A program made the translations under genes and the position numbers. Of a DNA stretch of 64,000 nt, positions 6,816 to 64,000 are shown piece by piece. Each line of letters begins with the position of its first letter. Position 1 is the stretch's first letter. The DNA lies in contig JAYWIR010000074.1 of NCBI GenBank assembly GCA_036172245.1, forward strand, positions 248,001-312,000, written 5' to 3'. Source of the DNA: Raillietiella orientalis. Taxonomy: Eukaryota. A model generated the notes under the pieces. The model was not told where the DNA came from. It saw only the letters and a program-made list of their open reading frames with translations, and ran no database searches.

Positions 6816-8951
6816 AAATCTCCTGGGCGTTCTCCGCGGTGATCATGTGGATCTCCTGCAGGAGCGCCAGGTCGAAGTCACGCAGGGTGGCGGCCGTCTC
6901 CCGTCTGTTACATTCGTCGCGCAGCCCGTTGACATTCCAACAGTCCACGCGTAATCGACCGCGACAGGCGAGACCAGGTGTTATTCTTGGGAAACTGGCA
7001 ATGGGGTTCCGGTCACCTGGTCGGGCGGGACGGATAGAGGAATGGGGTCACCGTTCACCGGTTCTCTCTCCTCCATGGGGGCCGATTCCTCGGCGGACCG
7101 CAACGGTTGAAGGGGGCGGGTTTCACCCACCTGCTCCCCCTCTTCCATGGGGGCCGATTCGTCGACTGCGCTGGATGGCAGGGGAAAGCGGTTGTCAGCT
7201 GTCTGCTCCCCCTCCTCCATGGCTATCTGTTGAACAGGTCCCACCGTTGGAAGGGGGCGGCAATCACTCACCTTATCCCCCTCCTCCATGGGGGTCTCCA
7301 GTTGCTCGGTAGCGGAGGGTGGGAAAATGCCTTCCTCCGTTCCTACGCTACCGGCTTCCCCCTCGGCTGCCGGTGCGTTCCCCTCCTTCTTTGTCGGGAT
7401 GCACCTTTTCGGATTTTCGGACTTCCGTCTAGTTTTCTTCGTAAGCGCCTCCGCGGAGGAGGACTCACTTCCGGTATCCGGGTCGTGGTCACCTGTCAGG
7501 GGTGCCATGGTCACCTCCGGCGTTCTCAAGGCCATTCGCGCGCCGTTCTCACGGTCCGCGAATTCGGCCGCGAGCTCTTCCGCCGCCTGTTGGAAGGCGG
7601 CGTCCTCGATTGCGGCGAGCGCGTCGCTCGTCTCCCTTTCTTTTTGTGCAGAGGGTTCGCCTTCCGCGGTCGCAACTTCCTCGTCAACGAGACGGGAAAT
7701 ATCTCCCTCGGTGGCGGTTTCGGAGACATCCACAGGCTCAAATGCGACCAAACATTCGCGGAGTAAAGCGCGGCGTTATCTCCTATTGAATTGAGATGTC
7801 GTGGGTTTCGCTGTCGGGCCTTCGGTTTTTTTGACCTTTTTACTTATAGGCTTCGCCTTATGCCAGCCCTGGCTGTCTCCAGAGTCGTCGGGAGTATCCT
7901 CGACCGGCGCTTGCTGCACGGGTTCGGGAACTGGCTGTGAGTTCCGCCTCTCGGGTCCCTCCTTAGGCTTTTCCGTTCGCCCCGCGTGTTTCCCTCTGGC
8001 TTTTTTCAAGGCAGGGGGAGCCGGAGTTTCGCGTTTAGGACACACCTTCCGCAGGTGGCCCTTTCCGACGCAATGGAAGAACTGGATGTGAGGGCATCGT
8101 TATTTAAGGTGCCCTAGGGCATCGCAGTGTCCACAGTACTTGGGCTTTCCCACCTAGGAGACGTCGACGACCTCGTTGCCGACATCTAGTTTGTGAGGCA
8201 GCCTACCGTTTTCGCTGACGGTCACACGCGCTGCAGCTATGCCACCGAAGAGTCTTTCGTAACTTTGGAAGATTTTCGGCTTGGTCCATACCGCGTGTAA
8301 CGTACCGAATTTACTTAATTCCTCCTTCACGCCGCTTTTTGACATGCGGAGGGACACTTCCGTAAGATGCGCTACCAAAGAGCGATCCTTGGTAATCGAA
8401 AAGACCCTTCTGCCTTCCACCATAAGGGGGGTATTCAGCAGGCGCTGAGCCAAGCTTTCATCTTTGCAAGTTAGCTTCACCCGCTGACCCCCACTGAGCA
8501 CTGAAAGACATTCCAGGTTCTCCTCTTTCACATCTAGCCGCTGCAACTTCCTCTCAAAGTTGCGGGCAGTATTCCCCACAAACAAATTTACTACTTTCTA
8601 AATCAAGGACGGCTCTCATCCTTGTTTAAGGTAGGCGCGCTTTTCTGCTGCAGATGCAGGAGATCGCGCTGCAGCTATGGCGCTCCAGGACTTCGTCGTT
8701 GCCGAAGAAGGATCCCAGGACACGGTCTCCTCCTTTTTCAAGAAGGCAATTGCCCTCTCCTTTGTGGGGGCAGTTGCCCTCACCTCAATGGGTTGTGGAG
8801 AGGAACAATCCTCTCCCCCGCCGACTTCCATCGCGGTGTCTTCAAGAATTTCTGCCATTGGACACCGCAGATGCAACACACAAAAACACTAACGAAAAGG
8901 AACGCTTAACAACAGGCGCAGAGAAGCGCGGAAAAAACACGTCCACACGAT
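6816..8951 (-). mobile_element. Copy D: 5' arm (5' UTR, complete but disrupted ORF1, first ~45 codons of APE); probably the inverted 5' part of D+E
   Basis: GGACGTGT at 8937-8944 (minus strand). ORF1 pieces at 8616-8879, 8154-8585 and 6981-7751; knuckles CGHCDALGHLK and CFHCVGKGHLRKVC at ~8040-8140. Then WNVNGL...LLQEIH. Confidence 0.9.
7040..7300 (-). repeat. Degenerate coding tandem repeat (~23-26 aa units starting PMEEG) in the ORF1 C-terminus
   Basis: PMEEGDK, AMEEGEQ, PMEEGEQ, PMEEREP in ORF 6981-7751. Confidence 0.75.
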
Positions 8952-11290
8952 AAGTTGCTAGCCAAGATGTGGGCAGAGCGTCTGGGACGGGTTGCCAACA
9001 TCTTCGTCAACCCGCAACAGACATATGCTGTTCCCGGGCAAAGCAAGTAGGCGAACCTGTTCCACGCTTCCACATGGTTAGAGCTCCAACAAGGAAGGGG
9101 CTCATTGAGCAGCCGGAATTCCGGTGCGTCCGTTGGCGGGAGACAAGACGGTCGGGTGGGGAAGGGAGCCCTTGCGGTCGCTATCGACTTGCGTGAACCA
9201 TTCGACAGCGTCGACGAGAATCTTCTCCTGAAGATTCTGGAACGCTTGGGCTTCTTAGCCTCTTTGTTGGCCTACCTACGCTCTAGCAGGCGCGACGCGC
9301 TCATTAATTTGTTTTTCAGCGGGCAGACCGTGCACGGCGTAACGGTGCGACGCGGCATACAGCAGGGAGACAGCTTCAGCCCCCATGCTTTTTAGCACCT
9401 TTTCAAATTGGTGCGGAGAGCGTACAGGGAGACCCTGGCGCACCTGTCGCGCGATTGTCCTGGTACGCCCGCGGTTTCAGCGTATGCGAACGACCTTCTG
9501 CTGCTGCTCCCTATGTCCATCATGGCTTCGGCGGTCGAGGAGTTCTTCGACATGCTGAGTCGGGGAACAGGACTGAGGGTGATCAGAGCGAAGTCGTCCG
9601 TCATGCCAGTCGAAACGGCGTGAAGAGGGCACCAGGACTTGGTCCGTTTGGGGATCCCCAAGATGAGGTACTTCAAGTACCTTGTTGTGCGTTCAGGGGA
9701 TTATTCCCCTGCGGAAGCGGGGTCCGGCTGCCTTCAGAAGGCTCAGGCGGCGATCGGCCCGTTGCAGGACGGCAGGTTCTTCCTCCAGGAACGGGCTGCG
9801 TCGTAAAACGCGCTCGCTGCTCCTCTCCTCCGCCCACTGCTTTTTGTTGGCCCCCACCCAGCGAAGATCAAGAAAAGGACGAAGGACCTTCTTAGGATCG
9901 CCGTTTGGAACAGAGGGAGGCCCGTGTCCGTCTCGTAGACTTGTGCGCTCTGCGTGGCGACGGCGGACTTAACCTCCTTACGCTGGAGAGGTTGGAGCTT
10001 CAGCTCCAGTTCCGCAGTGTTGCCTTTATGGCGAAGAATTGATGCACCGCCTGGTGCCTCCCTGCACGTCTCCTGGTCGAGCGAGACACCGGCAATGCGG
10101 GACTCTCATCTTACTTTGCACTCCCAATCCCCATCTGCAACTGCGGACTTCAGCTTCGGAGGGCGGCTATGCTCGTGAAGACCAACTAGGCGCGGATGCT
10201 CGTACGCCCCGCGAACTGTCCTTCCTGGTTGCAGGAAACCGTCCGCACTTGGGCGATGACTCAGGAGAAGAGCCCGCAACACGAGCGAATAGCTCTGTTT
10301 GGGTTGCACGCCCACCGCACGCTTTGAGAAATCGTCGAAGATCCCCGTAGGAGAGCGTGGGCACAAAGAACCTCCCTTGCTGCGGTACTGCCTACCCTGG
10401 GGGAACATCTAGGCAGCCACACCGCGGTGGAATAGAAGGTTACTTTCAAGATCGCTGACCGGGTACAGAAGATCGGGTATTAGAGAAAAGTCCAGCTGAC
10501 CAACGCTGCGACACCGAGGACCACCCCACACGGACTCCTGCGCTGGGGCGTGCTACTGGATGTTCCGGAGGAACATCTTGAGTGGCCCCCGGTGCTCATG
10601 GACTCGCACACCTTTCTATGAAGTGGCAACTTTCAGCACTCCTGCTGTTGCATTGAGGCCTCCCCTGCAGCGCCCGCCGAAACCACTGGACGCGGGAGGG
10701 TGTCTACCCCTATTGTGTCAGGTGCGGGGAGAGGGAATACCTCCTCCACCTGTTAGTGGATTGTGTTCCCCTTCGTCGCTTGTGGGAACGCTTTGCCGCG
10801 GCCCTTGGTATCCCCGGAGGTAACCCCAGAGACGCTTTGCGTCCCTTCTTCGTTCGTAACGCCCTGCCACCGGCGGCGTCGCTTGCCGTTCTGTGCTTCC
10901 TACGCGGGATCGTCGTGGTATGCAGCAAAACGATGGGAGGATCCAGCGACATGGATTCCACCGTGTACGCGGCCCGCTTCCTAAGGATGGCTACGGGATG
11001 GCCCATCTGAAATCTACTATTCAGCAACAGCTTGCCAACATCCTCCAGAGAATGTCGGTCCCCCGCAGCAGACAGTGATCCCTTCTTGCTCCCTCCCCAG
11101 TTTTGAATATTGCTTTGTTTTCTTTTTGTTTCGTTCTTCCTCCCCTCTGCTGCCGAGTTTGCCCGCTCCGGTGTAAGCACCTGTATCCCGGCAGGCTAAG
11201 AGATTCTAGGGAGTAACTCGACTACTGGTCCAGTCCCATTTCATAGATGTTTGTTCGAAAGAATAAACTTCACGGCGAACCGGGTTTCAA
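8952..11290 (+). mobile_element. Copy E: 3' part (RT to 3' end), subfamily 1; degenerate
   Basis: Starts KLLAKMWAERLGRVA, then RRGIQQGDSFSP, AYANDLL, CVRCGEREYLLHLLVDC. CAGTGATCCC at ~11073. 3' motif at 11262-11285. Confidence 0.92.
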
Positions 11291-13941
11291 TTGAGATTCC
11301 GGAGGATGACTCCTCTTAGGATTTGGCAAGGGTGTTCTTTAGCACCGGAGAGCAGCGTCCAGTCTCCAGGCAGCCGCTACGCCCTGGAAAAAGGTCCTTT
11401 GTCGCGCGGGCATACCTTTACGATGAACCGGGAATGGTCCTACAGCGTCCACGCAACTCTGCCCCGTTTGTTGATCCGCGAGCACAGGTCGGCATCCAGG
11501 AAGACGTGGTCTTTGCTGCGTTCCATTCCCTCCACGTCCGCCAAAAAGTTGCGCGTGCGCATGGCAGCGCACAACTCGTTCGCCGTGCGTTCTTCCGCTT
11601 CGGGCTCACCTGACAGGAGACGGAGATTAAAGTCCTCAGCTTTCAGGTGTGCCTTCCGCACGTTCGTGTCCACCAGCCAGTCGCGCTTCACGGTTTTCAA
11701 CAGCCTGGTACAGTGACTGTATCCCTTTTTTCCTTTGGAGGCGTACACATTCGTGACGATCAGAACGATCGAATCAAACCAGCTGAGAATCATCTGAGCG
11801 ACCCGACCGTCGTCATGGAAGCGCATTATCTTCACGGCAGCGTCGATGGCCGGCTTTACGAAGAACGCCACTCCGCAGATGTTGCGGGCGCCGCATCACT
11901 TCTACATCTGATTTCCGCGATCGACTCGATCTCTTGGACGTCTGCCGCGGAGATCACGAGGATCTCTTGCAGCGGGGCCAGGTCAAGCTCACGCAGGGTG
12001 TCGTCTGTATCTCGCCTGTTACCGTCGACGCGCCGCTTGTTGACATTCCAACACGCCGCGCGAATCCGACGGCGACTTGTTAGCCCAGGTGTTACTCCTG
12101 GGAAAGTGAGAGTGCGGCGTCCGCTATTTGCTCGGGCGGGACGCAAGGTGGAGGAAGAGGGTCAGGTGCTGAAGGCACCTGGTCCCCCTCCACCATGGGT
12201 AACTGCGCGTCGAGCGAGACACCTACAGGTGGGGTCGCGCTTACCTGATCGCCCTTCTCCATGGGGGCGGGCTGTTCAGGTTCGGCGACGGCAGGGAGAA
12301 CTTCGTGATCTGCTAACGCTCCTCCTTGGGGGTGGCCGGCTCGACGGCTTCCCGGCGTGGGAGTTCCCCCTCCGCAATTCCCTCGCCGTTGACGTCTTCC
12401 GTCTTGTCCTCCTCGCTGGGGAAGGAGAGGCGCCTCCTGGGCTTCTGAAACTTGCGTCCCGGCTTCCTGGTGGGTGCCTCCGAGGAGGAAGATGCACTTC
12501 CACCGCCTAGGTCGCACTCCCCTTTGGAGACCTTCTTCGGCGAAGCCGGCCTCCGCTCGGCCTTGCGTGAGGGGTTCTCACGCTAAACCAGCGTGGCCGT
12601 GAGCTTCTCCGCCGCCTTCGTGGAGGCGGCGTCCTTGCCGGCGGCGAGCGTATCGCGCGTCTCGCCCTATGTGTAAACAGACGGTTAGCCGTCGCGAACC
12701 TCGGGCTCGGCGGAAACGGCGATGAAAGGCTCGTCGCCCCGGATGGCAGCCTCGGGAATGCTGACGCGCTCCAGTGCCACCGCGCACTCGCGGAGGGTTT
12801 TTGAGAGCGGCCCGGGCTTTTTCGCCTTCCCGGCAGTCTTCTTTTACGCGTTTCTCCCCTTTTATTCTCTAAACCCCTTTTTGGGCTCTTTCCTGGGCGT
12901 AACCAGTTTCCATCCTACCTCCACTTCTGCTCTTTTGGGAGTGTTTTCCTCCGATGCCTGTGCGGCAGGAAGGGAGGCTGGCGGCTGGGAGCGGCCAATT
13001 TCAGGTTTGGGTTTTCCGGCCAGCTTTCCTTGTTTTCCCTGGGCCTTTTTGGCAGCAAAGGGCAATGGGATGAAGCGCTTAAGGCACACGCGGCGAACGT
13101 GCATCTTCTGTTTGCATATTCGGCATACAATATTTGGGCACCGCTTGCGCAAGTGCCTTACTACATTACAGTAGCCAGAGTTGCGGGGTTTTCCAACCCA
13201 CCAGAGCTCCGCCGGTTCTTAGCAGACCTCCAGTTTGTTAGGTAGCTCACCACCATTTTTGTCGGTGACACGCGCTGTGGCCTGGCCTCCCAAAAGGGTA
13301 TTATAGCCGTTAAAAATGGTATGCTTCGGCCACAACGCGTGCACATCTCCGTGCTTACTCAATTCCTCACCAATCGCAGAGAGAGTCATGCGGCTGATGA
13401 TCCCGGTAAGATGGACCACCACGGAGGGGTCCATCGTCACCTGCAAGATCTTGCGTCCATCAGCGATCAAGGGGTCGGTGATCATATGCTGTGTCAACGT
13501 AATATCCTTGTAGACTACCTCGATGCGCTGATCCCCTCTGAGGACGGAGAGGCCCTCAAGATCTTGTTCCAGCACGTTCGCAGACTGCAGCTCCTTCGTG
13601 AAGGAACGTGCAGTCTTTCCATCTAACAGGTTGCCTTCCTTGTGGACAAATGAAGGCTTTTACCCGCCGGCCCTGTATGCAGCATTTTCTGCCATGGTTT
13701 CCGCCCTAGACGCGGTCTCCATGGCGCTCCTACTTCTCGCATTAGGCGACGAGGGTGATTCTTGGGCGGATGCCCCTGATTCTGTATGCCGTGAGGGCGA
13801 ACTAGCCTTCCCCACGCCTACCGCCATCGTGGTGTCCTCTGGCCGAGATGCCTTCGGACACCAACGATGTGAAAGACACACACTCCACAAACGAATCTCC
13901 TTTCCGAGACTCGTCGAAGGACCACCGGAAAAACACGTCCT
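11291..13941 (-). mobile_element. Copy F: 5' arm (5' UTR, ORF1, APE up to ILRGVILRNL); probably the inverted 5' part of F+G
   Basis: GGACGTGT at 13933-13940 (minus strand). ORF1 with CRICKQKMHVRRVC; TAACA junction at ~12090; CWNVN, NVYAS, DFN, KDHVFLD. Confidence 0.92.
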
Positions 13942-16836
13942 TCCGTTACGAAAGAGCGTACTTCTATGGCCGTCGTTAAGCGAGCACCCCCAATGTCCGT
14001 CGCCTTGCAGAGTAACGAGCCAAGGTCGAACGCCAAGCCTGGCAATCCGGGTCGGCCAGCTTGCTAGACAACCAGGGCCGAGTGCACCCGGCTCCGGCTA
14101 GAATACGGCACCTTGTGCGGTGTTACTATTCCTCCCTTTACGCCAGATCGCCCCCGTACCAAGATGCCTTTCGGCGCTTGCTTCCGGATGGTGCCCCGGC
14201 AATAGGGGAGGAAAAGGAATGCATCGACGAGCCTTTTACCACCTGAGAAATTCTCGCCGGTATCAAAAGGCTTTAGAGGCGAAAAGCTCCAGAAGAAGAT
14301 GGTTTGCCCGCGGAGTTCTTTTAGAGCTTCGCAGAAGAGCTGGCACCCCTGCTGCTTCAGCTGACAAGGCTTATCCGAAACGAAGGCGGTGTACCCGCCT
14401 CGTTTCGGTCAGCCAGATTGAGGCTTCTTCCGAAAGAAGGAGACCTCAGGAAACTCAGGAACTGGCGTCCGATCACAATTGTGAATACGGACGCCAAGCT
14501 GATCGCCGGACTGTGAGCTTCGCGTCTAGGGCAGGTGGCCAATTCCATGATTAGCCCGGAGCAGAATTACGCTGCTTCCGGGCGAAGTATGGAGGACAAC
14601 CTGTTCTTCACGAGCACATGGTTTCATGTGCAGAGTAGTAATGAGGAAGAGGGAATGATTGGCAGCCCCGCTTCGGGGGCATCAGTCGGACAGGCATGGG
14701 ACACTAAGGTAGGTAAGGGGGCCCTAGCGATCCAAGTCGATCTGCATAAAGCGTTCGACTGTGTGGAACAGGATCTCCTGCTGGAGCTACTGGGACGCAT
14801 GGGCTACCCTTAATCCCTACTGACCTACCTGCGCTCTTCCTAACGCAGCTTGCTAATTAATACCTCTCCCAGAGGTGAAAAGGCGTACGGCGTGCGGCTA
14901 CGGCGGGGCATACGGCAGGGCGACAGCTTCAGTCCTCTACTCTTTAGCACCTACTTCGAGTTCGTGCTGAGAGCGTATAGGGTAACTTTGGCACCGTTGC
15001 CGAACTCGTGCACCAGCAGGCCTGCCGTAGCAGCGTATGCCAACGATCTTCTGCTCCTGATGCCGATGTCCACCCCGAAGAAGGCGGTCGGGAATTTTTT
15101 CGATTTGCTCAGATGCAGGAACGGACTGCAGGTTAACAGATCGAAGTCTTCGGTGGTGCCAGTTGGTGCGTCGAGGACTGAACAACAGGATTGGGTTTGC
15201 TTGGGGATCCCCACGGGAAGTTGCCTGAAATACCTAAATTTGCGTTAGGGTACTATTCATCTTCGGATGCGTGGTCCGGCTGCCTCCAAAAAGTGAAAAC
15301 GGCGATCGGCCCGTTCTTGGAAGACAAGTTTCTCCTTCCGGAACGGGCCGCGGTATGGAACGCGTTCGCGGCTCCCATCCTCCTCTCCCTACTTTTTGTT
15401 TGCTTCTTCCCTGGAGAGATAAAGAAACGGACGTAGGACCTCCTGAGATCTGCCTTTGGGGAAGAGGGAGACCTCGAGTCCCGTTGAAGGACTTGTGTGC
15501 TCCACGTCGGTATGGCGGTCTCGGCCTCTTGACGTTGGAGCGAGTACAGATTCAGCTTGATGTCGAACTCTCTCCATCGCAGCGAAGTTATGGAGCACCC
15601 CTTGGTGCGTTTCGCCCCGACTCCTTGCCAGCCGTGTATCCAGGACGGAGGGTCTCGAGTCCTATCTTCTGTGCCATGGCTCGAAGTTCAAGAGATGCGA
15701 CCTTCTTCTGGGACGCATGGGAACTCTGGCTAAGGAAAACGGCTGGATGGTATGCAGTGCTGCCAACTCCTCCCCATGGCTGGAGGAGACAGCTGGCACG
15801 TGGGCGAGGACCAATTAGAATGATGAAAAGATGTGGAACTGCCTGCGACGCGGCGCCTATTCCCGCTGCACTCTGCGGAAGATACTCCAGTGTCCCGCGA
15901 GAAGCACGTGGGCAGAGACAACCCCCCTAGCTCCGGCGATGCCCTTTCTGAGGAGGGCGCTCTCCAGCAGCCGCAAGCCTAGGTGGCAAGCCTCCTGCAG
16001 CATCGCAGGCAAGAAGTTGATCAGCGGCTGGTCCACGGGTGAACTGGCGGACGCCAGTACCCCTAGTGTCCAACCCAGAGGACTAAAGAGATGGGGCGAG
16101 CTGCTCGGCATCCAGCCGGATGACCTGAAGTGGCCCCTGGTATTCATTAATTTGAGGATCCTCCTTTGGTGTGGGAGTAGTCGGCGCTTCTGTTGTTGCA
16201 TTGGGACATACGCTGCAACGCACGCCGCCACTATTGGACCAGGGGTCGAGTGGATCCTGCCTGCATCAGGTGTGGGGAGCGGCAAACCCTCCCCCACCTC
16301 CTTGTTGATTGTGCTGCCCTCTGACCCCTGCGGGAACGTCTTCGTGCCTCCCTACGGATCCAGGAGGGCAGCCAGCCCAGAGACGTTTTTCGGCTTTTGT
16401 TCGTGCAGGATGCCCTGCGACCAGATGCAGCCCTGGCAGCACTCTGCTGCGTCCGAGGAGTTGTGACGTGCTGGAGCGACGTCAGAAGACCGAGCCACGA
16501 CAGGGATGCCGTCGTACTTGCAGTCCGCTACCTGCGGATTACGACCAGATGGCCCCACCTGGGAACCATACGGACGTACCTCGAGGGCATCCTGCAAAGG
16601 ATGGACCCTCCTCCCAATGGTCAGTGATCCCTCCCCAACAGTCTGGAATCTTATTGCTTTTTATGTTTTATTTTTCCTTTTGTTTTTCCTTCCACCCCAT
16701 TTGCTGCTGAGGAGAGTCGCGTGGATCTGCGTACTGACATCCCGGAAGTATTGTTGAGTATACCGTAGTGAGGCTACCTACCACTAATTGTAGAGAATAT
16801 ATAATAAACGCCTCGGCGTGACCGGCTGGCAACTGG
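13942..16836 (+). mobile_element. Copy G: 3' part (linker, RT, C-terminus, 3' UTR), subfamily 1; degenerate
   Basis: Starts RYERAYFYGRR*; NWRPITIVNTDAKL, DLHKAFD, RQGDSFSPLLF, AYANDLL. CAGTGATCCC at ~16622. 3' motif at 16803-16826 followed by TGGCAAC x2. Confidence 0.92.
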
Positions 16837-17094
16837 CAACTTGGCGTCCGTGTTTATGATCGTGATCGGACTCCAGTTCTTTAAATCTCTGAGATCTCCA
16901 CCTTTCGGAAGGAGCCTTACTCTGGCTGACCGAAACGAGGCGGGAACATCGCCGTCGTCTCGGATCAGCCTTATCAACTGGAGCAGCAGGGGTGCCAGCT
17001 CTTTCGCGAAGCTCTGAAAGAACTCCGCGGGAAAGCCGTCTTCCCCTGGAGCTTTACGCCTCTTGAGCCTTCTGGTACCGGCGAGAATTTCGTT
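16837..17094 (-). mobile_element. Copy H: short RT N-terminal fragment
   Basis: EILAGTRRLKRRKAPGEDGFPAEFF...RLLPKGGDLRDLKNWSPITIINTDAKL. Confidence 0.9.
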
Positions 17095-19310: not shown

Positions 19311-19630
19311 GACAAGCGATATTGAAAAATGCGCCGTGATTCATATGTCGTGGCGGAAACCCAACCGTTTCGGGGTCAGGGCCGTTTTCAGTGGGCGTGT
19401 CCCTAAACGCGTGACTTCGCGCAATGGTTCCCAACTTCCCCACAAACTCCAGCTCGGAGGCGAGTTCGTCGACGTCAGGTGAGTTGGTAAACCAAAGTTT
19501 TGCGGGATTCGAAAGACATTCGGGCATCTCAAAAAAAGATGCCTGGACGCACTATGCCCCACTTGTGGCGAGAAGGGTCATACCAAAGTGGTGTGCCCAA
19601 AGAACGTCGCTTCGTCACCGTCGAAATCTT
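19311..19630 (+). mobile_element. ORF1 fragment with two zinc knuckles, head-to-head with copy I
   Basis: LPHKLQLGGEFVDVR*VGKPKFCGIRKTFGHLKKRC...CPTCGEKGHTKVVCPK matches ORF1 at 60.6-60.8 kb. Confidence 0.85.
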
Positions 19631-43140: not shown

Positions 43141-43149
43141 GAAGACGCT

Positions 43150-53500: not shown

Positions 53501-54280
53501 ACATCAGCGCGTCTAGAAAAGGTGCGCGCCTGCAAAAAAGTACTGCTGTTGGCGAACCCTTCTCTAAAGCCTCGCGGGAGCCGGTGCAAGGGAAACCGTT
53601 AGCAGAACTCGCGGTCTGATCTTTTTGAATGATCCCAGTCCGCGAGTTCGCGGATGACGAAGGTCCGGAGGTACTGGCGGAGATGATCCGCCGCCTCCGG
53701 ATGGCTAAGCCAGTCCGCCGACATCCTCCAGTTTTTCAGCAAAGGCCCCTTGCCTGGCGGAAGGGGCTCGAACTCCAACCTGTTATGATCACAAAGTGCG
53801 GACGACAATCTTCCCCTTCTTCCCACACGAGGGTGCAGGTTGTCATCGAGAAAGATGTGATCCGGTAACCTTTCTATCTCAGGTACGCCGATTATCAAAT
53901 TGAGAGCGCGTACTGACGCGCACAACTCGATGGCCGACGTTCGCTACCTCAGGGAGCACCATTCGTCGGAGAGCAGGTGGACGTTGAAGTCGCCTGCAAC
54001 GAGGTGCGCCACTTGGGAGCCGGAGTTGTTGAACCAGTGGCATTTCACATCCTCGATTAGCGCAATTCTATCTACGAGGTAGCGCGAGCCACTAGGCGAG
54101 CTGATGTTCGTCACGAAGAGATCGATGGACTCCGACCACTTGATAACAAGCTGGCCCACCCCTCCGTCGTCATCAAAGCGAACACTACGCACCGCTTCCG
54201 CCATTTTTCCTCTTACGAGGAACGCGAAGCGGCTCGTACGCCCGTCACCACACTGCCAAAGAAGCTTTCCTCCTGCGCGA
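50531..54280 (-). mobile_element. Copy L, 3' portion (APE to 3' end), subfamily 2, nested in K
   Basis: GKLLWQCG, AGDFNV, LCDH, NWRPIILVNSDVKL, DLHKAFD, AYADDL, CARCGATESFPHLVMDC. 3' motif at 50536-50560 with a 5-A tail. Confidence 0.92.
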
Positions 54281-55135
54281 TCAAGAGCGACAGTCGTTGA
54301 AGATATCGTGGATGCCTTTCACAGGCATTACACGAAACACTTCAGGCGACAACATCTCTATCGCTCTAGTCAACAAGCCTTTCTGACCTATTTCGAGAAG
54401 AGGACCGACGACCTCCAGCGGAATAGACTAGAGGAGGAATTCTACAAAGACGAGGTAAAGACTGCTTTTGCACAACTGCGCAAGTATGTGGCGACGCATT
54501 CAGGGTTTTCGAGACACAGTGACCACTCTGTTCGATCACCCGTTAGGGTGGTTTTCCTTAAGAACGGAGAATCCTCGGCAAAGACAAGGCACTAAAGCGG
54601 CGCTCTTGAGCATGCCCGCCTGGTTCGACACACATCCTGGACATCAGGAGGTCCTGGTGACAATTCTCAAGACCACAAAAATCAGAAGAGTCACCGACAG
54701 ACACAGCTTGCAACACAGGATACACCTGTTTGCAAATATGCAATTCGAGGATTGGCGCTTGAGGCAGGAGGCGTACCGGGACCTGAACATCCAAGATCGC
54801 TCAATCTCAAAGGACTTCGATCAGTACGAGAGTCGGCAGGTCTTCAACAACATAAAAGGGGAAGTCGGCGTGCTGGAAAAGAGAAATCTGGCAACGGATA
54901 TGTTCTGTATCCAGTATGACGGTCAAGAGCGACAGTCGTCCGAAGAAATCGTGGATGCCTTTCACAGGCATTACACCAAACACTTCAGGCGACAACATCT
55001 CTGTCGCTCTTATCAACAGGCCTTTCTGGGCTACCTCGAGAAGAGGACCGACGATCTCGAGCGAAACAGACTAAAGGAGGAATTCTCCGATGACGATGTG
55101 AAGAATGCGTTTGGTCAACTACGCAAGGACGTGGC
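54281..55135 (+). repeat. Imperfect ~210-bp direct repeat (54281-54492 vs 54923-55135)
   Basis: Both start TCAAGAGCGACAGTCGT and encode IVDAFHRHYTKHFRRQHL...AF(A/G)QLRK. Confidence 0.9.
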
Positions 55136-56500
55136 AGCGGGCCCTCACAGCGTACCCATCACTCACTATCAGCGGTACCTGCATGCCTACCTGCGCTTGT
55201 TCAACCAGTTGACCCTCTGCATCCATTTAGAAGGAAGACTTCCACAGTCCTTCTACGAAAGTAGGATGAGATTGTTGCCAAAAGGAGGCGACCTCACGTA
55301 GGTCGCACAATGGAGGACAATCTCGATCCTGAACTCGGATGCCAAGTGGTTGGCGAAGATCTGGTCCAACCGTTTAGGCAAGGTCATGTCGAGGCTCATC
55401 TCTCCGGTCCAAACGTGAGCAGTCCCTGGACGTCACATGTAGGACAATGTCAAGTGGGCCCAGGCCACCGTAGGACTCAGCCGATACGTCGGCGAGAACC
55501 TGGCGATGGTGTTCACTGACATGGAGAAGGCTTCCGACTCCATCGACCATGGGATGCTGCTGAAGGTTCAGGAGAAGCAAGGCCTTCCGGAACACTTCAG
55601 CAGCTTCGTGAGGGTGGTACTCCAGAACCAGTACTGGCGAATCAAAATTAACGGCCAGGAGACGGCTGCTATCCGGATGGAACGGGAAGTCCGGCAGGGC
55701 GATTCGCAAAGTCCGATGCTGTTCGTTATCTACATGGAGGCATTGTCGTCCTTTGTCGAGAAAAGCGGACGACTGCAAGGCATAACAATCGATGGCCAGC
55801 GTCTTACCCATCTGGCATACGCTGATGATCTACTCTTCTTTATCAAGGGAGAGAGAAATCAACTAGCGTTTCTGGATGTGGTAGACCTGATGGATCAATA
55901 CCTGGGCCTAAAGAACAACGCCCAGAAAAGGCAGCTCTTGCCTGTTGGAATCCTCGGTCTCTCCGCTCTAGCGGGGAGAGGATTCCGAACGGTGGACAAG
56001 GCCAAGTTCCTGGGTGTCTACATTGGCGTCGTCTACGCGTCGAAGCTATTGTGGACCGAGATCCTAGGGAAAACGGCCAAGGAAGCAGCCAAGTACACCC
56101 GAACGGACCTTGGAATAAAGCGAAAGGCCAACATATGGAACGGAGTACTCCTTCCAAAAGTGCTCTTCGGGGCGGCCTTCGCGAGGATGAACAAGGACAC
56201 CACGAGGGAGTACGACAAGCTGCAGTGAAAAACACTGTGGGGCCACTATCGCCCAAGAGTCCGACTAAAACCCCTGTGTCTTCCCAGGGAAGAAGGCGTT
56301 TCCGGGATGAAGTCGCTTGCACACTCCATAGAAATCATGGATAAGCGACACATCCTGAACTCTGCCACTAACTGGGATGACTTGCCGTATGCGGCGCACG
56401 GGGCCTACGCGTTGTTGTTGAACAACTCGAAAAGCCTGATGACTGCGCTGCTAGGCAATGTAGGGGAATGGATAACAATCGACCCGACCTGGAGGAGGAA
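54281..56500 (+). mobile_element. Copy M: RT-containing fragment of a second, distinct L1/Tx1-like family; degenerate
   Basis: RMRLLPKGGDL, WRTISILNSDAK, DMEKASDSIDH, VRQGDSQSPMLF, HLAYADDLLFF, KFLGV. Sequence is clearly different from the main family. Confidence 0.88.
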
Positions 56501-56519
56501 GCAACGGCTGGTGCGGAAG

Positions 56520-57051
56520 CACCAAATCAAGATCGTGCCGAGAAGCAGGGAACTCTAGCAGGACGGGTCCATCCTGGTGATCCCTTGGATGCTTGCTGTC
56601 CCGCCGGAGACGACAAGCTGGATCCACCAGCGGTCCAGGGTTACCCTGTCGGAGGAGCCGCTGCACAAGCTCAGCCTTCTTTCATCGGACCTTGACATTG
56701 CCCAATGCTGGAAGAGGCATGAGTGCTTTGAGTTCCTCCTCTCGCATTCCAACACGGAAATGTTCGTCCGCGAATTCTTCTCTTGCCTTGCCTACCCCAC
56801 TTACATTGTAGCGGAGAGAAGATATGTAGCCCTAGGCTACATATGCCTGCATATCCGCTTGGTCGGGAGGCATTCTTGCACGGCCGCAGATGCAGCCACT
56901 TCCGCGAAGCTCATGAGCAGTTGCGCGGGGCTCGCACTGGTTGTCGCCATCGTTGCAGCTGGGAGAAGTTCCTGAACCATTGGTTTCACGACTTCCACGT
57001 TGTCTTGCACACAGCTCATCCTTACGACGGTGCAGCGCGACACACAAGCGC
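56520..57051 (-). mobile_element. Copy L, 5' portion (ORF1 N-terminus)
   Basis: SFAEVAASAAV, DMQAYVA*GYISSLRYNV, VKVR*KKAELVQRLL, IQGITRM are homologous to other ORF1 starts in the window. Confidence 0.75.
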
Positions 57052-57062
57052 AACGTTGAAAT
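57052..57062. repeat. Target-site duplication, copy 2 (AACGTTGAAAT)
   Basis: Identical to 50520-50530. Confidence 0.88.
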
Positions 57063-59234
57063 CGCCTGCAACCAGATGGTCATTCCGCAAGCCTGCTTTG
57101 GTCAGCCAGTCAAGCCGGAAGATAAGGAAAAACTCGTTCCTCGTCCTCCTGTTCGTCAGGACCGCGCCGCTCGGTGCGTACACGTTCGTGACGATGAGGT
57201 CGCTCGAGTCGGACCACCTGAAAGTCAGCTGGCCGACACGACCGTGATCGTCGAACTGCACACCATGTGCCGCGGCTTCGACGGCTGGCCGAAGCAGGTA
57301 AGAAGCACCGCAACTCTTTGGTTTCCCACACCTATACCATAGCCGCCCTACGGAGATTCGTTTTATCTCTTGCGCTTGTTCTGAAGAGATCATTTGGGTC
57401 TCCTGCAGCAGCGCAAGATCGAAGGATTCAAGCAGGGCGGCTATGTCTCGTATCCTGCCCGCGTCTGTCATGCCGTTCACGTTCCAAACGGCGATGAGCA
57501 GACGACGGCGGAAGGAGATTCCGTTCATTACTGCTGGGAAGATTAAGGTGTGGGGAGCCCGCCTCTTGCTAGGCGGGCGGGATGTCCATGGGGGTTTCGG
57601 ACTTCTCAGGCACCTGAGGCACCTGTTTGGCCTCCACTTCCTCCATCTTCTTCGTGTCCAAGCGCCGCAGTCTCTAGGGCAAAAGGTCCTGCGAGTTTCC
57701 CACGCTCATGGCATTCTCGCTTCCGGAAGCCATCTCTTTTCCTTCGACGGGGGAGACGATATTCGTCGGCTTTGTAGACTTAGGTCCAGCCTTCTTGCGG
57801 GGTGCCGTGGAAACGGAGGGTGCGCTTCCGGCCTCCACCTCGGGATCGGAAGTGGGGGACTCCTGAGGGGAGGACGGACGCCTTAGAGCCTTCTTGCCAG
57901 GCTTGTAGGGTTCTGGGTGCAACGAGGCAGCCAGCTCCTCCACGGCGCGCTCGAAGGCGACGTCATCGAGCGAGGGCTCGATTTCGGACGCCGCCGCCTC
58001 GCTCCTTTCCTTGTTGTCTTTGTCAACGGAGGGTTGAACAGGGGCAGCAGCGAGTTCATTAGCGCCGCATTCGTCGATGGCGGGAATCGGCTGTACAACG
58101 ACGCAGCAGCTTTTGGTTTTTTCGCGGCGCGGAGCGCTTTCGCTCCGTTTCGTCACGTTCTTTCCCTTCTTATGGGAGTTTTTCTTGGGGTCCACCTTCT
58201 GCCACCCTGGCTCTTGACCCTCGCCCTCGACCTTTTCGGCGTTTTTGCCAAGTTCTCGGAACTGGCCTTTGCCTTGGTGACGAAGGTGTCCTCCTTAGCA
58301 GCAGCACGAGCTGCCAGCTTCTTTTTTTTCTTTGACGCGCGCTTTCTCGCGTATTTTGCGGACGCGACGCGGACTGAGTTTTGGGGGCACACCAGACGGG
58401 TGTGCCGTGCTTCTTTGCACTGCTGGCACTGCACGCTCGGACACCTCATTTTAAGGTGAACAAAGCTGCTGCAGCAGCCGCAGAACTTGGATTTCCCCAC
58501 GTATCACACGTCAACATATTCACCGTTGACGGTGAGTGTGTGGGAAAATTCACAACCTTCGCGAACGGTCAGTCGCGCTGCACTTAGGCCACCACGCACC
58601 CCGTCGTAATCAATAAAAGAAGGAGGCCTTCCCCACAGCGCGTGGACAGTTGGAAATTGTTCTATTTCGTTCCGGACGGCCTCCTCCGTCATTCGGTACG
58701 TAATACCGGTCAGGTGAATGATCACCGACCGGTCTTCTGTAATTGGGAGAAGCCTGCAGCTGCTTATAATTACGGGGGTCCGCAGAAGTCTCTGCACAAG
58801 AGTTGTCTCCTTGCAGGTAACTTCCACAAATCGACCCCCGCTTTTGACGAACATAGCCAGAAGCTCCTAGTTATGTACGACGAAAGCGCGCATCGCCTGC
58901 AAGGAGGCGCGCGCGTTCTCAGCATGATGTAGACCGCATACCTTGTATAGGAGGAAGGTTGATACCCCTCTTCCGGGTAGGCGCGCATCTCCGCCATAGC
59001 CGCTGGCGTAGGTGCGGCAGCCACGGCGTTCGAAGCACTCGGTGGGGCCAAAAGCGCATGTGTGCTGGCGGGAGCCCTCACTGGTGGGCGAGCCCCCACT
59101 CTTATCTTCTCAGGGGGCAGTGGGGTCATCGCCCCCGGATCCTTACCTGCGGTGGAATCAGGCATTGCTGCTTTATCCTCCACACACACCACGCAAAAGC
59201 ACCAGCGCAAAAAAAACTTAGGAGCAGCGAAGAG

Positions 59235-59242
59235 ACACGTCC
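59235..59242 (-). promoter_or_regulatory. Conserved 5' motif GGACGTGT, a DPE-like internal promoter element (also at 8937-8944 -, 13933-13940 -, 43154-43161 +, 45153-45160 +, 59927-59934 +)
   Basis: Present upstream of ORF1 in six copies whose UTRs are otherwise divergent. Matches the DPE consensus RGWYV known from internal promoters of insect LINEs. Confidence 0.7.
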
Positions 59243-59268
59243 GTACGATGCTTCAGAGTCTCGCTTTA

Positions 59269-59921
59269 AACCTGGTTGCGCCGTTACGTTGATTTTTTCA
59301 AGTGAATTTATCTATACTGTGACTGGAACAGTAGTCCAGTCACGCCCTGGAAACATTCAGTCTGCCGGGCTACCGGTGCGCAGTTCGGCGCGGTCGACCT
59401 CGACAGCAGAGGGAGAGGGGAATCAAACAAAAAGAAAAAAAATAAACCGACACCGGGGAGGGAGCGGGAAGGGATCACTGTCTGCTGGGAAGGTCCGTCA
59501 TCCTCTGTAGGATGCCGGCAAGCTGTTGCTGGATGGTGGATTTCAGATGGGTCCTTCGCGTCGCCATCCTCAGGAAACGGGCGGCGTACACCGTGGCATC
59601 CCTGTCGCTGGACCCTTCCGTCGGTTCGCTCCAGGTCACGAAGATCTTTCGTAGGCAGCACAGAGCTGCAAGCGCGGCCGCCGGAAGCAGAGCGTCACGG
59701 ACGAAGAGGGAGCGCAAAGCGTCTCTGGGGTAGCCTCCGGGAATTCCCACGGCTGCGGCAAAGCGTTCCCACAAGGGACGGAGGGCAACACAATCCACTA
59801 ACAGGTGGGGGAGGTATTCCCTCTCTTCGCACCTGACACAATTAAGGTTGACAGCCCCCTGCGTCCAGTTGTGTCGGCGGTCGTTGCAGGGAAGACTCCA
59901 ATGCAACACCAGCAGTGCCGA
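59269..59921 (-). mobile_element. 3'-terminal piece (ORF2 CCHC, stop, 3' UTR), subfamily 1
   Basis: LHWSLPCN...CVRCEEREYLPHLLVDC; CAGTGATCCC stop at ~59475; 3' motif at 59270-59294. Confidence 0.92.
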
Positions 59922-59997
59922 CGGTCAGACGTGTTCTCTGCGCGCTCCTGACTCGCTCGACTTTATTGGTGTAGTGCGGTGCATCAGTGGTCGGGGG

Positions 59998-61597
59998 ATG
60001 GCAGAAATGCCTGATCCCGCCACTAGTGAATGTGGGGTGGGGGCCGGGCGAACGTCCCCCGTACCCCTGAGATAGGGGCACCTGCCCCGAAGGCTTCGTC
60101 CCCCGCGCCGGCGAGGGACTACAGCGCCGAGGTCGCCGCGCCATCTGCAGTGGCCATCGCCGAGGCCCAGGCCTACAAGGCCTACAACTACAACCCGAGT
60201 CTGCTGTATAAGGTAGGCCGGGTGTTTGATGACCGTGTGGCGCGCTCCTTCGAGAAGGAGCTCCACCGTTTGAACGTTAACAAGGAGGATCTACTGGGTC
60301 TCTCCATCCGCAGCGGGGGACAGCATGTCGAGTTGACCTGCAAAGAAGCAGGGTTGGCGCAAAGACTGCTGCTAACCCCCGTCAGGGTCGAGGGCCGCCA
60401 GATCTTCCCTGTCCCGGTGCACAACTTAATAGTTGTCCATTTCCGTGGAATCACCGTGCGGATGTCACCGATTGCCGTTAGGGCTGAACTCAGCAAATTC
60501 GGCACCGTACACGCGCTGTGGCTGAAGCCCAACAGGTTCCGTACTTATGACGGACTCCTGAGCGGACTCGCCGCGGCACGTGTGACTGTGAATATGGACA
60601 TTGGGGTTCCCCATAAACTAGTAGTCGACGGAGATTCTGTCGACATCTGGTATCTGGGGAAACCCAAATACTGTGCGTTTTGTGATGGTACAGGGCACGT
60701 GAAGAAACGCTGCCCCAACATCACCTGCCGCAAGTGCGAGGCAATCGGGCACACGGAAGAAGTGTGCCCCAAAAAGACTTCGCGCGCGCCGGCTGCTGCC
60801 GTGAGCGGCACGAACGCGAGCAAGAAGCCTGGCAAGACCAGGCCGCCGTCTGAAAATACGGTTGACCCGGAGGCAGCCAAAAAGGGCATCCCGACCACCG
60901 CGTCTGCAGAAACACAGGCAACCGAGGTGGAAGGAGAAGAGCCTGGCTGGCAAAAGGTCAGTCCAAAGAAAAAGAAAGAAAAAAAGGACGTAAATAATAA
61001 AAATAAAGTCCCTGCAAAATCCGCGAAACCCGCGAAAAAGCAGGGACTGAAAAAATGCACGGTCGCACTGGAGCGCCTTGCAGACGCCGAAGTGCCGTGC
61101 GAACAGGACGTTGCCGTGTGCAACAACGCTGACAGCCCCGTCGCTGTGCAAACAGCGTCCGAGGGCTGCGGCGAGGGGGAGAGCCGCGATGACGCGGGCT
61201 TTGCAAAAGCCGCCGCCGAGCTCGCCGCCAGTCAGCAGCCTCCCGCAAAGGTCGGGAAGAAGGCCGTTCGACGTCCGGCCGAGAGGAGGGGACCGGGACC
61301 TCGGACTCGGACCCGGAGACCGGACACGCACCATCCGCATCTGCACCCCCGAGGAAGACCGGAAGGAAAATCCGTAACCCGAGGAGGATCGTCTCCTCCG
61401 AGGATGGGTAATCCTCCGGAAACGAGGGTGCGGCGAGCGTGGGAGAGATGGACACGAGTCCTGAACTCCCACGATCGGTCGAGACGGAGCCGATGGAGAC
61501 GGAGGGGGTCGTCGAGCCGCCCCCCACCGCACAGGAGAAAGACGGCGTCCCGCCCCTAGGTGAGGCGGGAGACGCAGCATCACTTTCCCAGCAGTAA
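59998..61597 (+). pseudogene. ORF1 Gag-like nucleic-acid-binding protein with 2x CX2CX4HX4C; frameshifted near both ends
   Basis: CAFCDGTGHVKKRC and CRKCEAIGHTEEVC; Lys-rich middle; true end ...SLSQQ* with TAA at 61595-61597. Confidence 0.88.
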
Positions 61598-64000
61598 TGC
61601 CGGGACTCGCCACCTGGCGTCAAATACGCATCGCCAGCTGGAACGTCAACGGGCTTTGCGATGACGGCAGGAGACGAGACATAGCTGCCACCTTGCAAGC
61701 CTTCGACCTCGTGCTGCTGCAGGAGATCCATGAGATTTCCGCAGAACATGCGCGGGAGATCGAACGGAGAGCAGGTGGTCAGCTTATGTGGCGATGCGGC
61801 CACCGCCGTACGCGCGGGGTCGCTTTCCTTCTGAAGCCTGCCTTACAACGCGCGGTGCGGAAAGCTCGTTTCGATGAGGCAGGTCGGGTCGAGCAAATCA
61901 CCTTCAGGTGGTCCGACTCCATCAATCTCGTCGTCACGAAAGTGTACGCGCCGAGCGGCGGTCACGCGCGCGTGGCACGGACGGCGTTTTTCCGTGCGTA
62001 CAAGCGCGACTGGCTGTCGGAGGCAGGCGCGCGCACGGCGCACCTGATAGCCGGCGATTTTAATATTCGCCTGCTATCAGGTGCGGCGAGGACAGAGGCC
62101 ACCCCGGTTAACGAGATGTGCGCTGCGGTGCACGCATCCAACTTGTTAGCCGGGGATACCGGGATGGAACGGAGCGTGGACCACGTCTTCCTCGACGATC
62201 ACCTGCGCTGTCGCGTGTAAAGGCGAGGTAAGATACAGTCCGCAGTCTCCGACCACTCCCGTGTGGAACTCGTCATTCGCCCGCGCGACAGGGGGCCCCC
62301 CGCGCAGGCGTGGCGTCTACCGGGGGACTGGCTGACCAAGCCAGGCGCAGCGGAACACCTCCGCGCGTTCTTGCGAGGTTTCAGCCTGCAGACGCTCGAC
62401 GACTGGGACGATTTGAAAGTCTCGGTGCGAGAGTTCTGCCAACAGTTTACCATGGACCGTCTCCCGAAAGGATTTGGAGAAGGTGTTCGGAACGATAGGG
62501 CCTACCTGCAGGCCCGTCGTTACTCCCGAACACCAGACGTCCGAAGACTGGCGCAATTTAAAGCCGGGGCCGAGCGGCAGGCCTGGCAATCGGGGTCGCC
62601 CAGCCTGCTGGACGACGAAGGCCAAGAGCACTCGGCCCCGGCAGAGGTGAGTAGCCTAGTGCACGGCTATTATTCTTCCTTGTACACCAGGGTGCCTCCG
62701 GACCGGGAATTTTCCCAATTTTTGCTTCCGGACGGTGTTCCGGCGATCGGGGAAGAAGAGAGAGTACGCCTGGACGAGCCTTTCACGATGGGTGAAATCA
62801 TCACCCCAATAGGGAAGCTCAAAAGGCGGAAGTCACCGTGGGAAGACGGCCTGCCCGCGGAGTTTTTTCAGTGCTTCGCGGCGGAGCTGGCTCCCCTGGT
62901 GCAGCGGCTAACGCTGCTGATCCGGGAGACAGGAGACGTTCCCGCCTCCTTCCGATCGGCACGTATGCGTCTCCTACCGAAAGGAGGAGACTTACGGAAC
63001 CTCAACAATTGGCGTCCGATTACCGTACTGAACGCGGACGCCAAGCTGGTTGCGAAGCTATGGTCGGAGCGAATGGGGCGGGTGGCGGAAAGCTTCATCA
63101 GCCCGGAGCAGACCTACGCTGTTCCCGGGCGAAGCATGGACGCCAACCTGCTCTTCGCGAACACCTGGTTCGAACTTCAAAGAACCAGAATGAATGGAGG
63201 GAACAAGGTCGGCAGCCCGATTTGCAGGACGTCCGCTGGTGGTTCGCGGGATAGTAGGGAGAGAGAAGGGGCCCTCGCGGTCGCTGTCGATTTGCGGAAA
63301 GCATTCGACAGTGTCGACCAGGAGCTCCTGCTGGAGCTTCTGAAGCGCTTGGGCTTCCCGGCATCCTTATTGGCCTTTTTGCGCTCTTGCTGGCACGACG
63401 CGCTGACCAACATTTCTTTCAGGGGAAGGAACGTGTTCGGTGTGCCGGTGCGCCGCGGGATACGGCAGGGTGATAGCTTGAGCCCCTTGCTCTTCAGCAC
63501 CTACTTCGAGTTGGTGCTGATGGCATTCAGGGAGACTCTTGGTCGCCTGCCGCGCGTGTGCCCAGGTACACCGGCCTTGGCGGCGTATGCGGACGATCTT
63601 CTGCTGCTGCTCCCCATGTCCACCTGGGCGTCGGCAATCGAAAACTTTTTCGAGCTGCTGCGTCGCGGGACAGGACTGGAGGTGAACAGAGGAAAGTCGT
63701 CCGTTGTTGCAGTCGGTTCCTCGTGGGCAGAGCAGCTAGACTGGTCTTGCTTGGGGATCCGCACGGTACGGTACCTTAAGTACCTCGGTGTGCCGTTGGG
63801 GGACTACTCCCAACGGAACAATGGTCTTCCTGCCTCCAAAAGGCCGAGAGAGCGATCGGCCCGTTCCTGGATGGCAAGTTTTTCTTGCCGGAACGTGCCG
63901 TGCTGTGGAACACTTTCGTGGCCCCCCTGTTTCGCTCCTTGCTTTTTGTTTGTCTATCACCCCGTGGTGTGAGAACACGTACAAAGGACCTCCTCAGAAT
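61597..64000 (+). pseudogene. ORF2 APE endonuclease-reverse transcriptase; in-frame TAA at 62218-62220 and a frameshift at ~63815
   Basis: SWNVNG, LLQE, VYAP, GDFN, SVDHVF, SDH; NWRPITVLNADAK, DLRKAFD, RQGDSLSPLLF, AYADDL, KYLGVPL. Confidence 0.93.

Follow-up and report, generated by a model that had tools for sequence, protein, structure and literature searches.

The 64,000-nucleotide stretch of the Raillietiella orientalis genome analysed here (contig JAYWIR010000074.1; hereafter the window) carries two stacks of decayed copies of one LINE family, at 1-19.6 kb and about 37.3-64 kb, in which fragments repeatedly meet head-to-head. We see about an even chance that stacks and joints arose by nested self-insertion of the Zepp type, and nesting explains the surroundings of the joints at least as well as twin priming does. 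Ordinary target-primed reverse transcription would bring new copies into older ones of their family, with the opposite strand used more often, at integration sites that have a few bases in common with the complement of the element's 3' end. A full-length copy in an opposite-strand host would meet the host head-to-head with its complete 5' end, while its 3' tail would meet the other half of that host. Repeated nesting would yield series of a sense part (position z to the tail) followed by an antisense part (position y to the 5' end) on one side of a stack and the mirror image on the other. Most "inverted 5' arms" would then be fronts of separate full-length insertions, split by later insertions.

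With a length of about 5.6 kb, an ORF1 and an APE-RT ORF2, the element is an old L1/Tx1-like LINE. ORF1 is followed by APE endonuclease and reverse transcriptase, and Pfam searches returned RVT_1 (E 5e-22 in 62263-63972 and 3.5e-16 in 55506-56228) and Exo_endo_phos (E 2e-14 in 61597-62217 and 1.3e-10 in c57). The zinc-knuckle match of ORF1 is weak (zf-CCHC_6, 16.6 bits, under the 22-bit cut-off); CCHC-like spacing is seen in its translations. The best database homologues, at most 32% identical, have an APE+RT architecture, and copies of the family are 58-79% identical to each other. RIP-like hypermutation was rejected as the cause of this low identity (transition/transversion ratio 0.9-1.2 in seven of eight pairs, with 2.6 for the G-s8 pair alone). 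No poly(A) or simple-repeat 3' end was found: four aligned 3' ends close in ...AATAAACGCCnCGGCGnAACCGGGTGGCAAC-like sequence, and tails vary among copies (GGTGGCAAC, GGGTTTCAAT, GGTTGATAAAC and others). The G+C content is 52-61% in the clusters versus 43-51% between the stacks (20-40 kb), and a Pfam search of 25 ORFs from 19.6-44.4 kb gave zero matches.

Element ends were located with blastn-short. The motif GGACGTGT occurs seven times versus 1.54 expected, and none of 100 shuffles contained seven or more occurrences. Five of the seven (8937 and 13933, minus strand; 43154 and 45153, plus strand; 59235, minus strand) open mutually alignable 5' ends, the homology between which begins at the motif; the remaining two, at 35318 and 40850, are without family context. 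Together with an end that opens with the variant GGTCAGACGTGT (59923), there are six complete 5' ends within 64 kb.

Six head-to-head joints had been predicted, and tblastx and tblastn maps place all of them (Table 1). The original prediction also put the ends of the inverted arms of five just upstream of the motif, essentially at the 5' end. A complete 5' end is indeed present at five joints, but the exact motif stands at only four, the fifth being the variant at 59923. The exact motif at 59235-59242 starts a different copy, c57, whose head adjoins a tail and not another head. At 19290/19315 both arms stop short of a 5' end.

Table 1. Head-to-head joints and family copies in the window (aa, amino acid position in the named ORF; R, position in the element).
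Feature	Position	Strand	Content	Filler
Joint	8944/8952		antisense R2040 to 1; sense ORF2b aa261 to tail	7 nt
Joint	13940/13945		F antisense ORF2b aa46 to 1; G sense aa74/76 to tail	4 nt
Joint	19290/19315		antisense tail to ORF2b aa333; sense ORF1 aa152 to 257	
Joint	43149/43154		antisense ORF1 aa412 to 352; sense 1 to ORF1 aa262 at least	
Joint	45142/45153		antisense ORF2b aa306 to 68; sense 1 to ORF2a aa~61	7 nt
Joint	59922/59923		antisense tail to R4890; sense copy, 5' end to window edge	
A (s1)	9..1772	+	fragment cut by window start, to ORF2b aa74	
B	1773..4858	-	5'-truncated; 3' tail at 1773 to ORF2b aa15	
s3	4859..6816	+	5'-truncated; ORF2b aa381 to tail	
s4	6817..8944	-	complete 5' end (motif 8937-8944) to ORF2a aa55	
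s5	8952..11307	+	ORF2b aa261 to tail	
F	11291..13940	-	complete 5' end (motif 13933-13940) to ORF2b aa46	
G	13945..16836	+	ORF2b aa74/76 to tail	
s8	16837..17116	-	280-nt piece, ORF2b aa270 to 178	
s9	17117..19290	-	tail to ORF2b aa333	
s10	19315..19629	+	ORF1 aa152-257 only; adjoins non-family DNA	
Old host copy	37588..39654	-	ORF2b aa220 to 84, then aa41 to ORF2a aa31	
m1	38160-38955		tail to R4750; splits old host copy	
t1	42970..43149	-	ORF1 aa412 to 352; possibly part of old host copy	
c43	43154..44040	+	complete 5' end (motif 43154) to at least ORF1 aa262	
c45s	44395..45142	-	ORF2b aa306 to 68	
c45a	45153..47218	+	complete 5' end (motif 45153) to ORF2a aa~61	
c49	47219..50549	-	tail to ORF2a aa136	
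c53	50555..54279	-	tail, adjoining c49 end, to ORF2a aa58	
c55	54573..56320	+	RT part of distant lineage, 31% aa identity to ref	
c57	57045..59242	-	complete 5' end (motif 59235-59242) to ORF2a aa~141	
c59	59248..59922	-	tail to R4890; intact 148-aa ORF2 C-terminus	
ref	59923..64000	+	variant 5' end; continues off window	
ref, parts			ORF1 60030-61559; APE 61597-62220; RT 62263-63972	

The geometry of five of the six joints is also that of twin priming, although we consider it less likely than not as the dominant route. Each pair of an antisense part (y to 1) and a sense part (z to tail) would be a single insertion, in which the top-strand end of the target would prime a second cDNA inside the same RNA, running to its 5' end; new units would insert exactly at the tail of a prior unit, the 3' end of that tail acting as second primer. 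Twin priming would explain why head fragment and partner cover separate parts of the element (z>y in all four scorable pairs, about 1/16 by chance if positions are independent), an observation that counts against nesting. The same holds for the near-complementary pairs. F and G are 28-30 codons apart, and c43 and t1 are separated by 16 to 90 codons given the uncertain end of c43, which may extend up to 44394. The predicted loss of about 30 codons between F and G is correct, since four colinear copies that span the breakpoint (ref, B, c49 and c53) carry about 90 extra nt there. However, a gap of 30-40 codons in this region needs no inversion mechanism, because m1 splits its old host at ORF2b aa84/aa41, where 42 codons are gone. 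Moreover, the gaps between y and z at 8952, 45142 and 19310 amount to 0.65-2.5 kb, which is large for twin priming.

The neighbourhood of the joints fits nested self-insertion as well as twin priming or better. All nine 3' tails adjoin DNA of the same family, as integration into existing copies implies. Five of them (B/A, s3/s4, s5/F, G/s8 and c49/c45a) adjoin an internal opposite-strand site, the outcome expected from ordinary target-primed insertion into an older copy; three adjoin a same-strand site and one a 5' head. That head is the one of c57, which meets the tail of c59 plus about 20 nt; an extension of this length past the tail is common to s5 and c59 and is antisense to ORF2b aa40-46. 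Four inverted arms have a known outer end inside family DNA, and in all four this end directly meets a neighbour's 3' tail; the inner end of s4 is flush with the tail of s3 and the end of c45a with that of c49. Twin priming would have to re-use the end of the previous tail exactly in all four cases. The strand pattern flips at 4858 (B/s3), as expected at the centre of a nest. Microhomology between tail complements and internal sites, which may have a role in integration, fits nesting and twin priming equally.

The neighbours of the F+G pair fit nesting. A stops and G starts at ORF2b aa74 with the codon GTT on both sides, and the complement of the B tail, which adjoins the end of A, opens with GTT as well. 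B and F share about 90 nt of the element (ORF2b aa15-46), and their identity there (75.6% over 86 nt) is the top of 15 pairs in that segment. Under nested self-insertion, F/G would be the head of a copy B..F inside a host copy A..G, whereas under twin priming the one-codon A/G abutment, the B tail on A and the B/F overlap are coincidences. Flanking target duplications, expected of twin-primed units, could not be demonstrated: the comparison covers the F+G flanks, the flanks of other units being off the window or disrupted, and these (s5 tail, ...TTTCAAT; s8, TGGCAAC...) agree at four of seven positions. Nesting has difficulties of its own. It provides no 3' remainder for s4 or, at the odd joint near 44395, for c43, and it requires deletions of 0.5-3.4 kb with ends that coincide with other junctions. 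In addition, s10, a 3'-truncated ORF1 piece beside non-family DNA, resembles the outer end of a twin-primed inverted arm.

In the right stack, c49 and c57 overlap by 17-18 nt (16/18 identical, local alignment), flank a block of c53 and c55, and are sisters in the joint tree. Judged by sequence, they look like one host copy that was split and kept a 17-18 bp target duplication, an independent instance of host splitting, c49 being the probable 3' half of this full-length copy. Such blocks bring in another mechanism, in which a staggered cut or double-strand break in a host copy would offer both of its 3' ends as primers on different RNAs, and free DNA or cDNA pieces would also be ligated in during break repair, producing the composites B/s3, c53/c55 and s3-s4-s5. 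Dual priming has been proposed for L1 to account for poly(T)-headed copies, with two RNAs primed from two nicks and tails pointing outward (Meyer et al. 2010; PMC2837659). Blocks B/s3 (4858) and c53/c55 (54.3-54.6 kb) resemble this description, as their tails point outward and their truncated 5' ends face each other; c53/c55 also sits between the 17-18 bp repeats, and s8, 84% identical to the matching G segment, has a tail (of G and of s9) on either side. However, the blocks consist of two long elements of different lineages, c55 and c53 being of very different lineages and also unlike in decay, and the blocks are explained equally if one insertion followed another at a regenerated site. Nothing directly indicates that the pieces arrived in a single event, and we consider this mechanism improbable.

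Twin priming expects the tail-bearing neighbour to be older. We found the reverse for s3 against s4+s5 (stops, 3/533 versus 22/1343 aa) and for c49+c57 against c45a+c45s (12/1644 versus 13/873 aa). Stop density in s3, the innermost copy under nesting, is the lowest of the left stack (67/4642 aa in A, B, s4, s5, F and G), and in the right stack it climbs outward (per 100 aa: c53 0.55, c49+c57 0.73, c45a 1.08, c45s 2.69). These trends are weak (each about p 0.05-0.1), which together with the lack of a demonstrated breakpoint hot spot counts against nesting, and two of six host/insert pairs (A<B; s8<G) run opposite to the ages that nesting predicts. Twin priming gains from the equal densities of s4 and s5 (1.64 and 1.63 stops per 100 aa) and the similar ones of F and G (1.28 and 1.71). 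It also gains from ref and c59, which look young (4/1220 and 2/216 aa) and both have s5 as the closest copy in the window, as the two parts of one twin-primed element would. Overall, the stop densities are compatible with several pairings.

Trees leave the pairing of fragments similarly loose. The sole supported clade in the maximum-likelihood tree of the RT region is (G,B), with 100/100, and the AU test did not reject a grouping of s5 with G and B (p 0.35). Partitioned supermatrix pairing (reduced, nine runs) gave lnL from -33807.0 to -33808.6 for every single merge and thus had no power. By raw identity, s4 lies near A (70.7%, versus 54.9% to ref) and s5 near ref (71.8%, its closest copy, versus 65% to G and B); this sets s4 apart from s5, contrary to twin priming, without confirmation by the AU test. 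The fully nested pairing A-s5 and B-s4, with two deletions of about 550 nt, is disfavoured (A-s4 70.7% versus s5-B 64.7%). Twin priming may have made single joints, especially those at 59922, 8952 and 19310.

The joints could also have been made after insertion, by DNA inversion, by segmental duplication of one inverted copy, or by misassembly. Aligned across the junction, the F/G and c45 joints are 78% identical, as duplication would predict. Common ancestry of the two was nevertheless rejected: their breakpoints differ by 27 nt within the element, and because the partner starts (aa74/76 versus aa68) and fillers (GGAA versus CAAGAGC) differ, they represent separate events. DNA inversion would demand five breaks located exactly at the 5' end of the element, and inverted copies that recombine with each other stay colinear. 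Since copies are more than 20% diverged, repeat collapse or other confusion of the assembler is unlikely. We regard all of these origins as very improbable. When breakpoints were counted singly, 8 of 28 fell inside 235 nt, a significant clustering (40 of 20000 shuffles); with paired ends collapsed, clustering was not significant (5/23; 3724 of 20000 shuffles). As no hot spot is thus shown, the end of F near the start of G is a mild coincidence under nesting.

Target choice and inversion might be combined. In a self-homing LINE, both cut ends would normally prime reverse transcription (twin or dual), flipping the whole front of full-length elements, and homing would be guided by complementarity of the RNA 3' end, including the extension of about 20 nt in s5 and c59, to sites in the family's own ORF2. 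We hold this combination to be rather unlikely.

Inverted arms of mammalian L1 are usually truncated, and inverted insertions are a minority. Here, in contrast, five of six joints have an inverted part that extends fully to the 5' end, gaps extend up to 2.5 kb, and outer ends lie on the tails of other copies. The layout of the joints is otherwise that described for twin-primed mammalian L1, with an inverted 5' part head-to-head with a sense 3' part and an internal deletion (PMC2837659). Clusters of the L1-type Zepp and ZeppL elements of the green algae Coccomyxa and Chlamydomonas are described as the product of nested insertion into existing copies (PMC8226300, PMC3446292). According to these descriptions they are likewise G+C-rich (reported as 61% versus 53% for Zepp; PMC3446292) and contain many 5'-truncated copies. 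However, Zepp as described there has poly(A) and forms arrays mostly of 3' ends, while the present family lacks poly(A), includes six complete 5' ends in 64 kb and inserts into internal coding sites, mostly on the opposite strand. The likeness is one of cluster layout and composition. Tx1-group elements are site-specific APE-type LINEs of the L1 clade that have a target-like 3' end and form arrays at one site; in the present family there is no single target sequence, tails vary and several internal sites are used. Self-targeting clusters of L1-like elements make up centromere-like regions in some algae.

If nested self-insertion is correct, the family would be another L1-like element that makes dense clusters by self-targeting, a result useful for annotation and unsurprising. 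Head-to-head joints with complete 5' ends inside such clusters mimic twin priming, so that rates of 5' inversion are countable only on solitary insertions with target-site duplications. If, instead, integration ran mainly by twin or dual priming, the family would to our knowledge be the first in which ORF1 and ORF2 normally end up on opposite strands, and it would bear on the control of second-strand synthesis in LINEs.

Self-comparison of the window revealed fragments of a single repeat family with pairwise identities of 58–79% and balanced substitutions (ts/tv 0.9–1.2 in 7 of 8 copy pairs). The copies are therefore old or come from old lineages, and mutation by RIP is ruled out. In the best-kept copy, ref, there are three reading frames: a 509-aa ORF1 that weakly matches a zinc knuckle, an APE endonuclease (PF03372, E 2e–14) and a reverse transcriptase (PF00078, E 5e–22), the last two lying in ORF2a and ORF2b. 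A search of 5.8 billion proteins found its best matches among LINE proteins of APE+RT architecture, at most 32% identical and some of them named Tx1-like. In-frame stops occur inside ref ORF2 at 62218–62220 and 63970–63972. Opposite the first, c49 and c53, the two other copies aligned there, carry a glycine codon; hence this stop is private and ref is not intact. The four aligned 3′ ends (tails) terminate in a ...AATAAACGCC.CGGCG.AACCGGGTGGCAAC-like sequence and lack poly(A). Element 5′ ends (heads) start with GGACGTGT, which is found 7 times in the window versus 1.54 expected, and alignable 5′ ends begin at 5 of these 7 occurrences.

Fragments were placed on a coarse ruler, R (the reverse complement of F followed by G, 5546 nt), and on a finer one, the ORFs of ref. 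They form a left stack (1–19.6 kb) and a right stack (~37.3–64 kb). The DNA separating the stacks (19630–37250) is lower in G+C (43–51%); no family similarity was found there, nor any Pfam match among tested ORFs of at least 100 aa. In the right stack, fragments m2 and t1 may be parts of one old antisense copy. The 3.3 kb between them (39655–42969) are probably a further inserted element, without family similarity and with an ORF (39920–40798, + strand) that has no Pfam match. The reverse-transcriptase fragment c55 shares 31% protein identity with the main family and is a second, distant LINE lineage within the same nest.

LINE fragments of the two stacks, in order along the window (sense and antisense refer to the + strand; aa, ORF positions of ref)
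Fragment	Stack, order	Coordinates	Strand	Extent
A	left, 1		sense	to ORF2b aa74
B	left, 2		antisense	tail to aa15
s3	left, 3		sense	aa381 to tail
s4	left, 4		antisense	ORF2a aa55 to head
s5	left, 5		sense	aa261 to tail
F	left, 6		antisense	aa46 to head
G	left, 7		sense	aa74/76 to tail
s8	left, 8	16837–17116	antisense	aa270 to 178
s9	left, 9		antisense	tail to aa333
s10	left, 10		sense	ORF1 aa152 to 257
old host copy split by m1	right, 1	37.6–39.7 kb	antisense	
t1	right, 2		antisense	ORF1 aa412 to 352
c43	right, 3		sense	from head
c45s	right, 4		antisense	aa306 to 68
c45a	right, 5		sense	head to ORF2a aa~61
c49	right, 6		antisense	tail to ORF2a aa136
c53	right, 7		antisense	tail to ORF2a aa58
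c55	right, 8	54573–56320	sense	distant lineage
c57	right, 9		antisense	ORF2a aa~141 to head
c59	right, 10		antisense	tail to R4890
ref	right, 11	59923–64000	sense	head to window end

The original prediction placed six head-to-head joints of antisense and sense fragments in the window, and all six are present at those positions. They are real, not products of chance similarity. Five were said to lie just beside the 5′ motif: the exact motif stands 4–10 nt off the joint in four cases (8944, 13940, 43154 and 45153), while the head at 59923 carries only the variant GGTCAGACGTGT. The sixth, 19290|19315, joins two truncated ends. The claim that ~30 codons are missing between F and G is correct, since four colinear copies span the breakpoint with ~90 extra nt. 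The F|G and c45 joints can be aligned across the junction. However, the partner starts 27 nt apart and the filler sequences differ, so these are separate events rather than copies of one inversion.

Such joints had been read as twin priming, proposed as the family's main route. We regard this as possible but rather doubtful, and it is demonstrated at no single joint. In its favour, head fragment and partner overlap in none of the four scorable pairs; F and G are near-complementary, as perhaps are c43 and t1; and s10 adjoins non-family DNA. Neither s4 nor c43, at its irregular joint near 44395, has a visible remainder, and nesting, the insertion of family copies into older ones with splitting of the hosts, requires deletions there. 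In stop-codon density s4 equals s5, F resembles G, and both ref and c59 are low, s5 being the closest window copy to each of these last two. In human L1, roughly one-fifth of insertions are 5′-inverted.

Other evidence reads as nesting. Family DNA adjoins 9 of 9 tails, and 5 of the 9 run directly into the interior of a copy on the opposite strand. At 1772/1773, 6816/6817, ~11300 and 47218/47219, a tail of this kind is flush with the outer end of the 'inverted arm'. Since a tail necessarily lies next to its priming DNA, such joints are the expected trace of a tail-bearing copy inserting into a head-bearing one. A breaks off at the very codon where G begins, aa74 (GTT), the complement of B's tail also starts with GTT, and the B/F overlap (aa15–46) is 75.6% identical over 86 nt (49–71% in the other 14 pairs); A to G can thus be read as a single sense copy. 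It would hold a full-length antisense copy, B to F, which would in turn hold s3–s5. Fragments c49 and c57 overlap by 17–18 nt (16 of 18 identical), as would the two parts of a single full-length copy in which a duplicated target flanks c53 and c55. The old host is split colinearly by m1 at aa84|aa41, so a 30–40-codon loss in this linker arises without inversion. By geometry, opposite-strand nesting would give the alternating pattern on the right-hand side of 4858 as well as the mirrored one to its left and in the right stack.

Tail complements share microhomology with internal sites, for example GTTGCCA for G|s8, GTT for B|A and ~20 nt for s5|F. This microhomology works both ways: a host strand could have primed on the new RNA tail, or equally an old tail inside new RNA. 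The s5|F bases are antisense to ORF2b aa40–46 and are also present in c59 beyond its tail. These ~20 nt lie past the tails of s5 (11297–11320) and c59 (59243–59265), which at 79% identity are the most similar of the long pairs. They may represent a 3′ extension or transduction and could steer new insertions into ORF2 of the family itself. G's tail bears a tandem TGGCAAC (16822–16843), the second of which may be host (s8) sequence resembling the tail. The 280-nt s8, lying between two tails, and G's own segment are the closest pair in the window (84% identity, ts/tv 2.6).

In the RT-region tree, the sole supported grouping is (G,B) at 100/100, and forcing s5 to join G and B lowers lnL by 0.97 (AU P-value 0.35). 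By raw identity, s4 is nearest to A (70.7%) and s5 to ref (71.8%), an unconfirmed hint that the arms at 8952 may derive from different subfamilies. Partitioned likelihood, with 5′-only merged with 3′-only fragments, gave an equal score across nine runs. The innermost copy should be the youngest under nesting and the oldest under tail re-use. The least decayed are the innermost s3 and c53 (0.56 and 0.55 stops per 100 aa), and c45a+c45s (13 stops in 873 aa) are more decayed than c49+c57 (12 in 1644 aa). These gradients favour nesting (P-value about 0.05 each), although the order of stop-codon ages is contrary for A<B and s8<G. Breakpoints cluster within 235 nt of the APE–RT linker when all ends are counted (8 of 28; 40 of 20000 shuffles) but not when ends paired under nesting are collapsed (5 of 23 events; 3724 of 20000 shuffles).

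Some composite blocks could stem from dual priming or from break-repair capture, which we think improbable. Overall, and with a literature comparison drawing on PMC8226300, PMC3446292 and PMC2837659, we suggest with moderate confidence that the joints are best explained by Zepp-like nesting, in which an L1/Tx1-like LINE would have inserted into copies of itself, most often in the opposite orientation.
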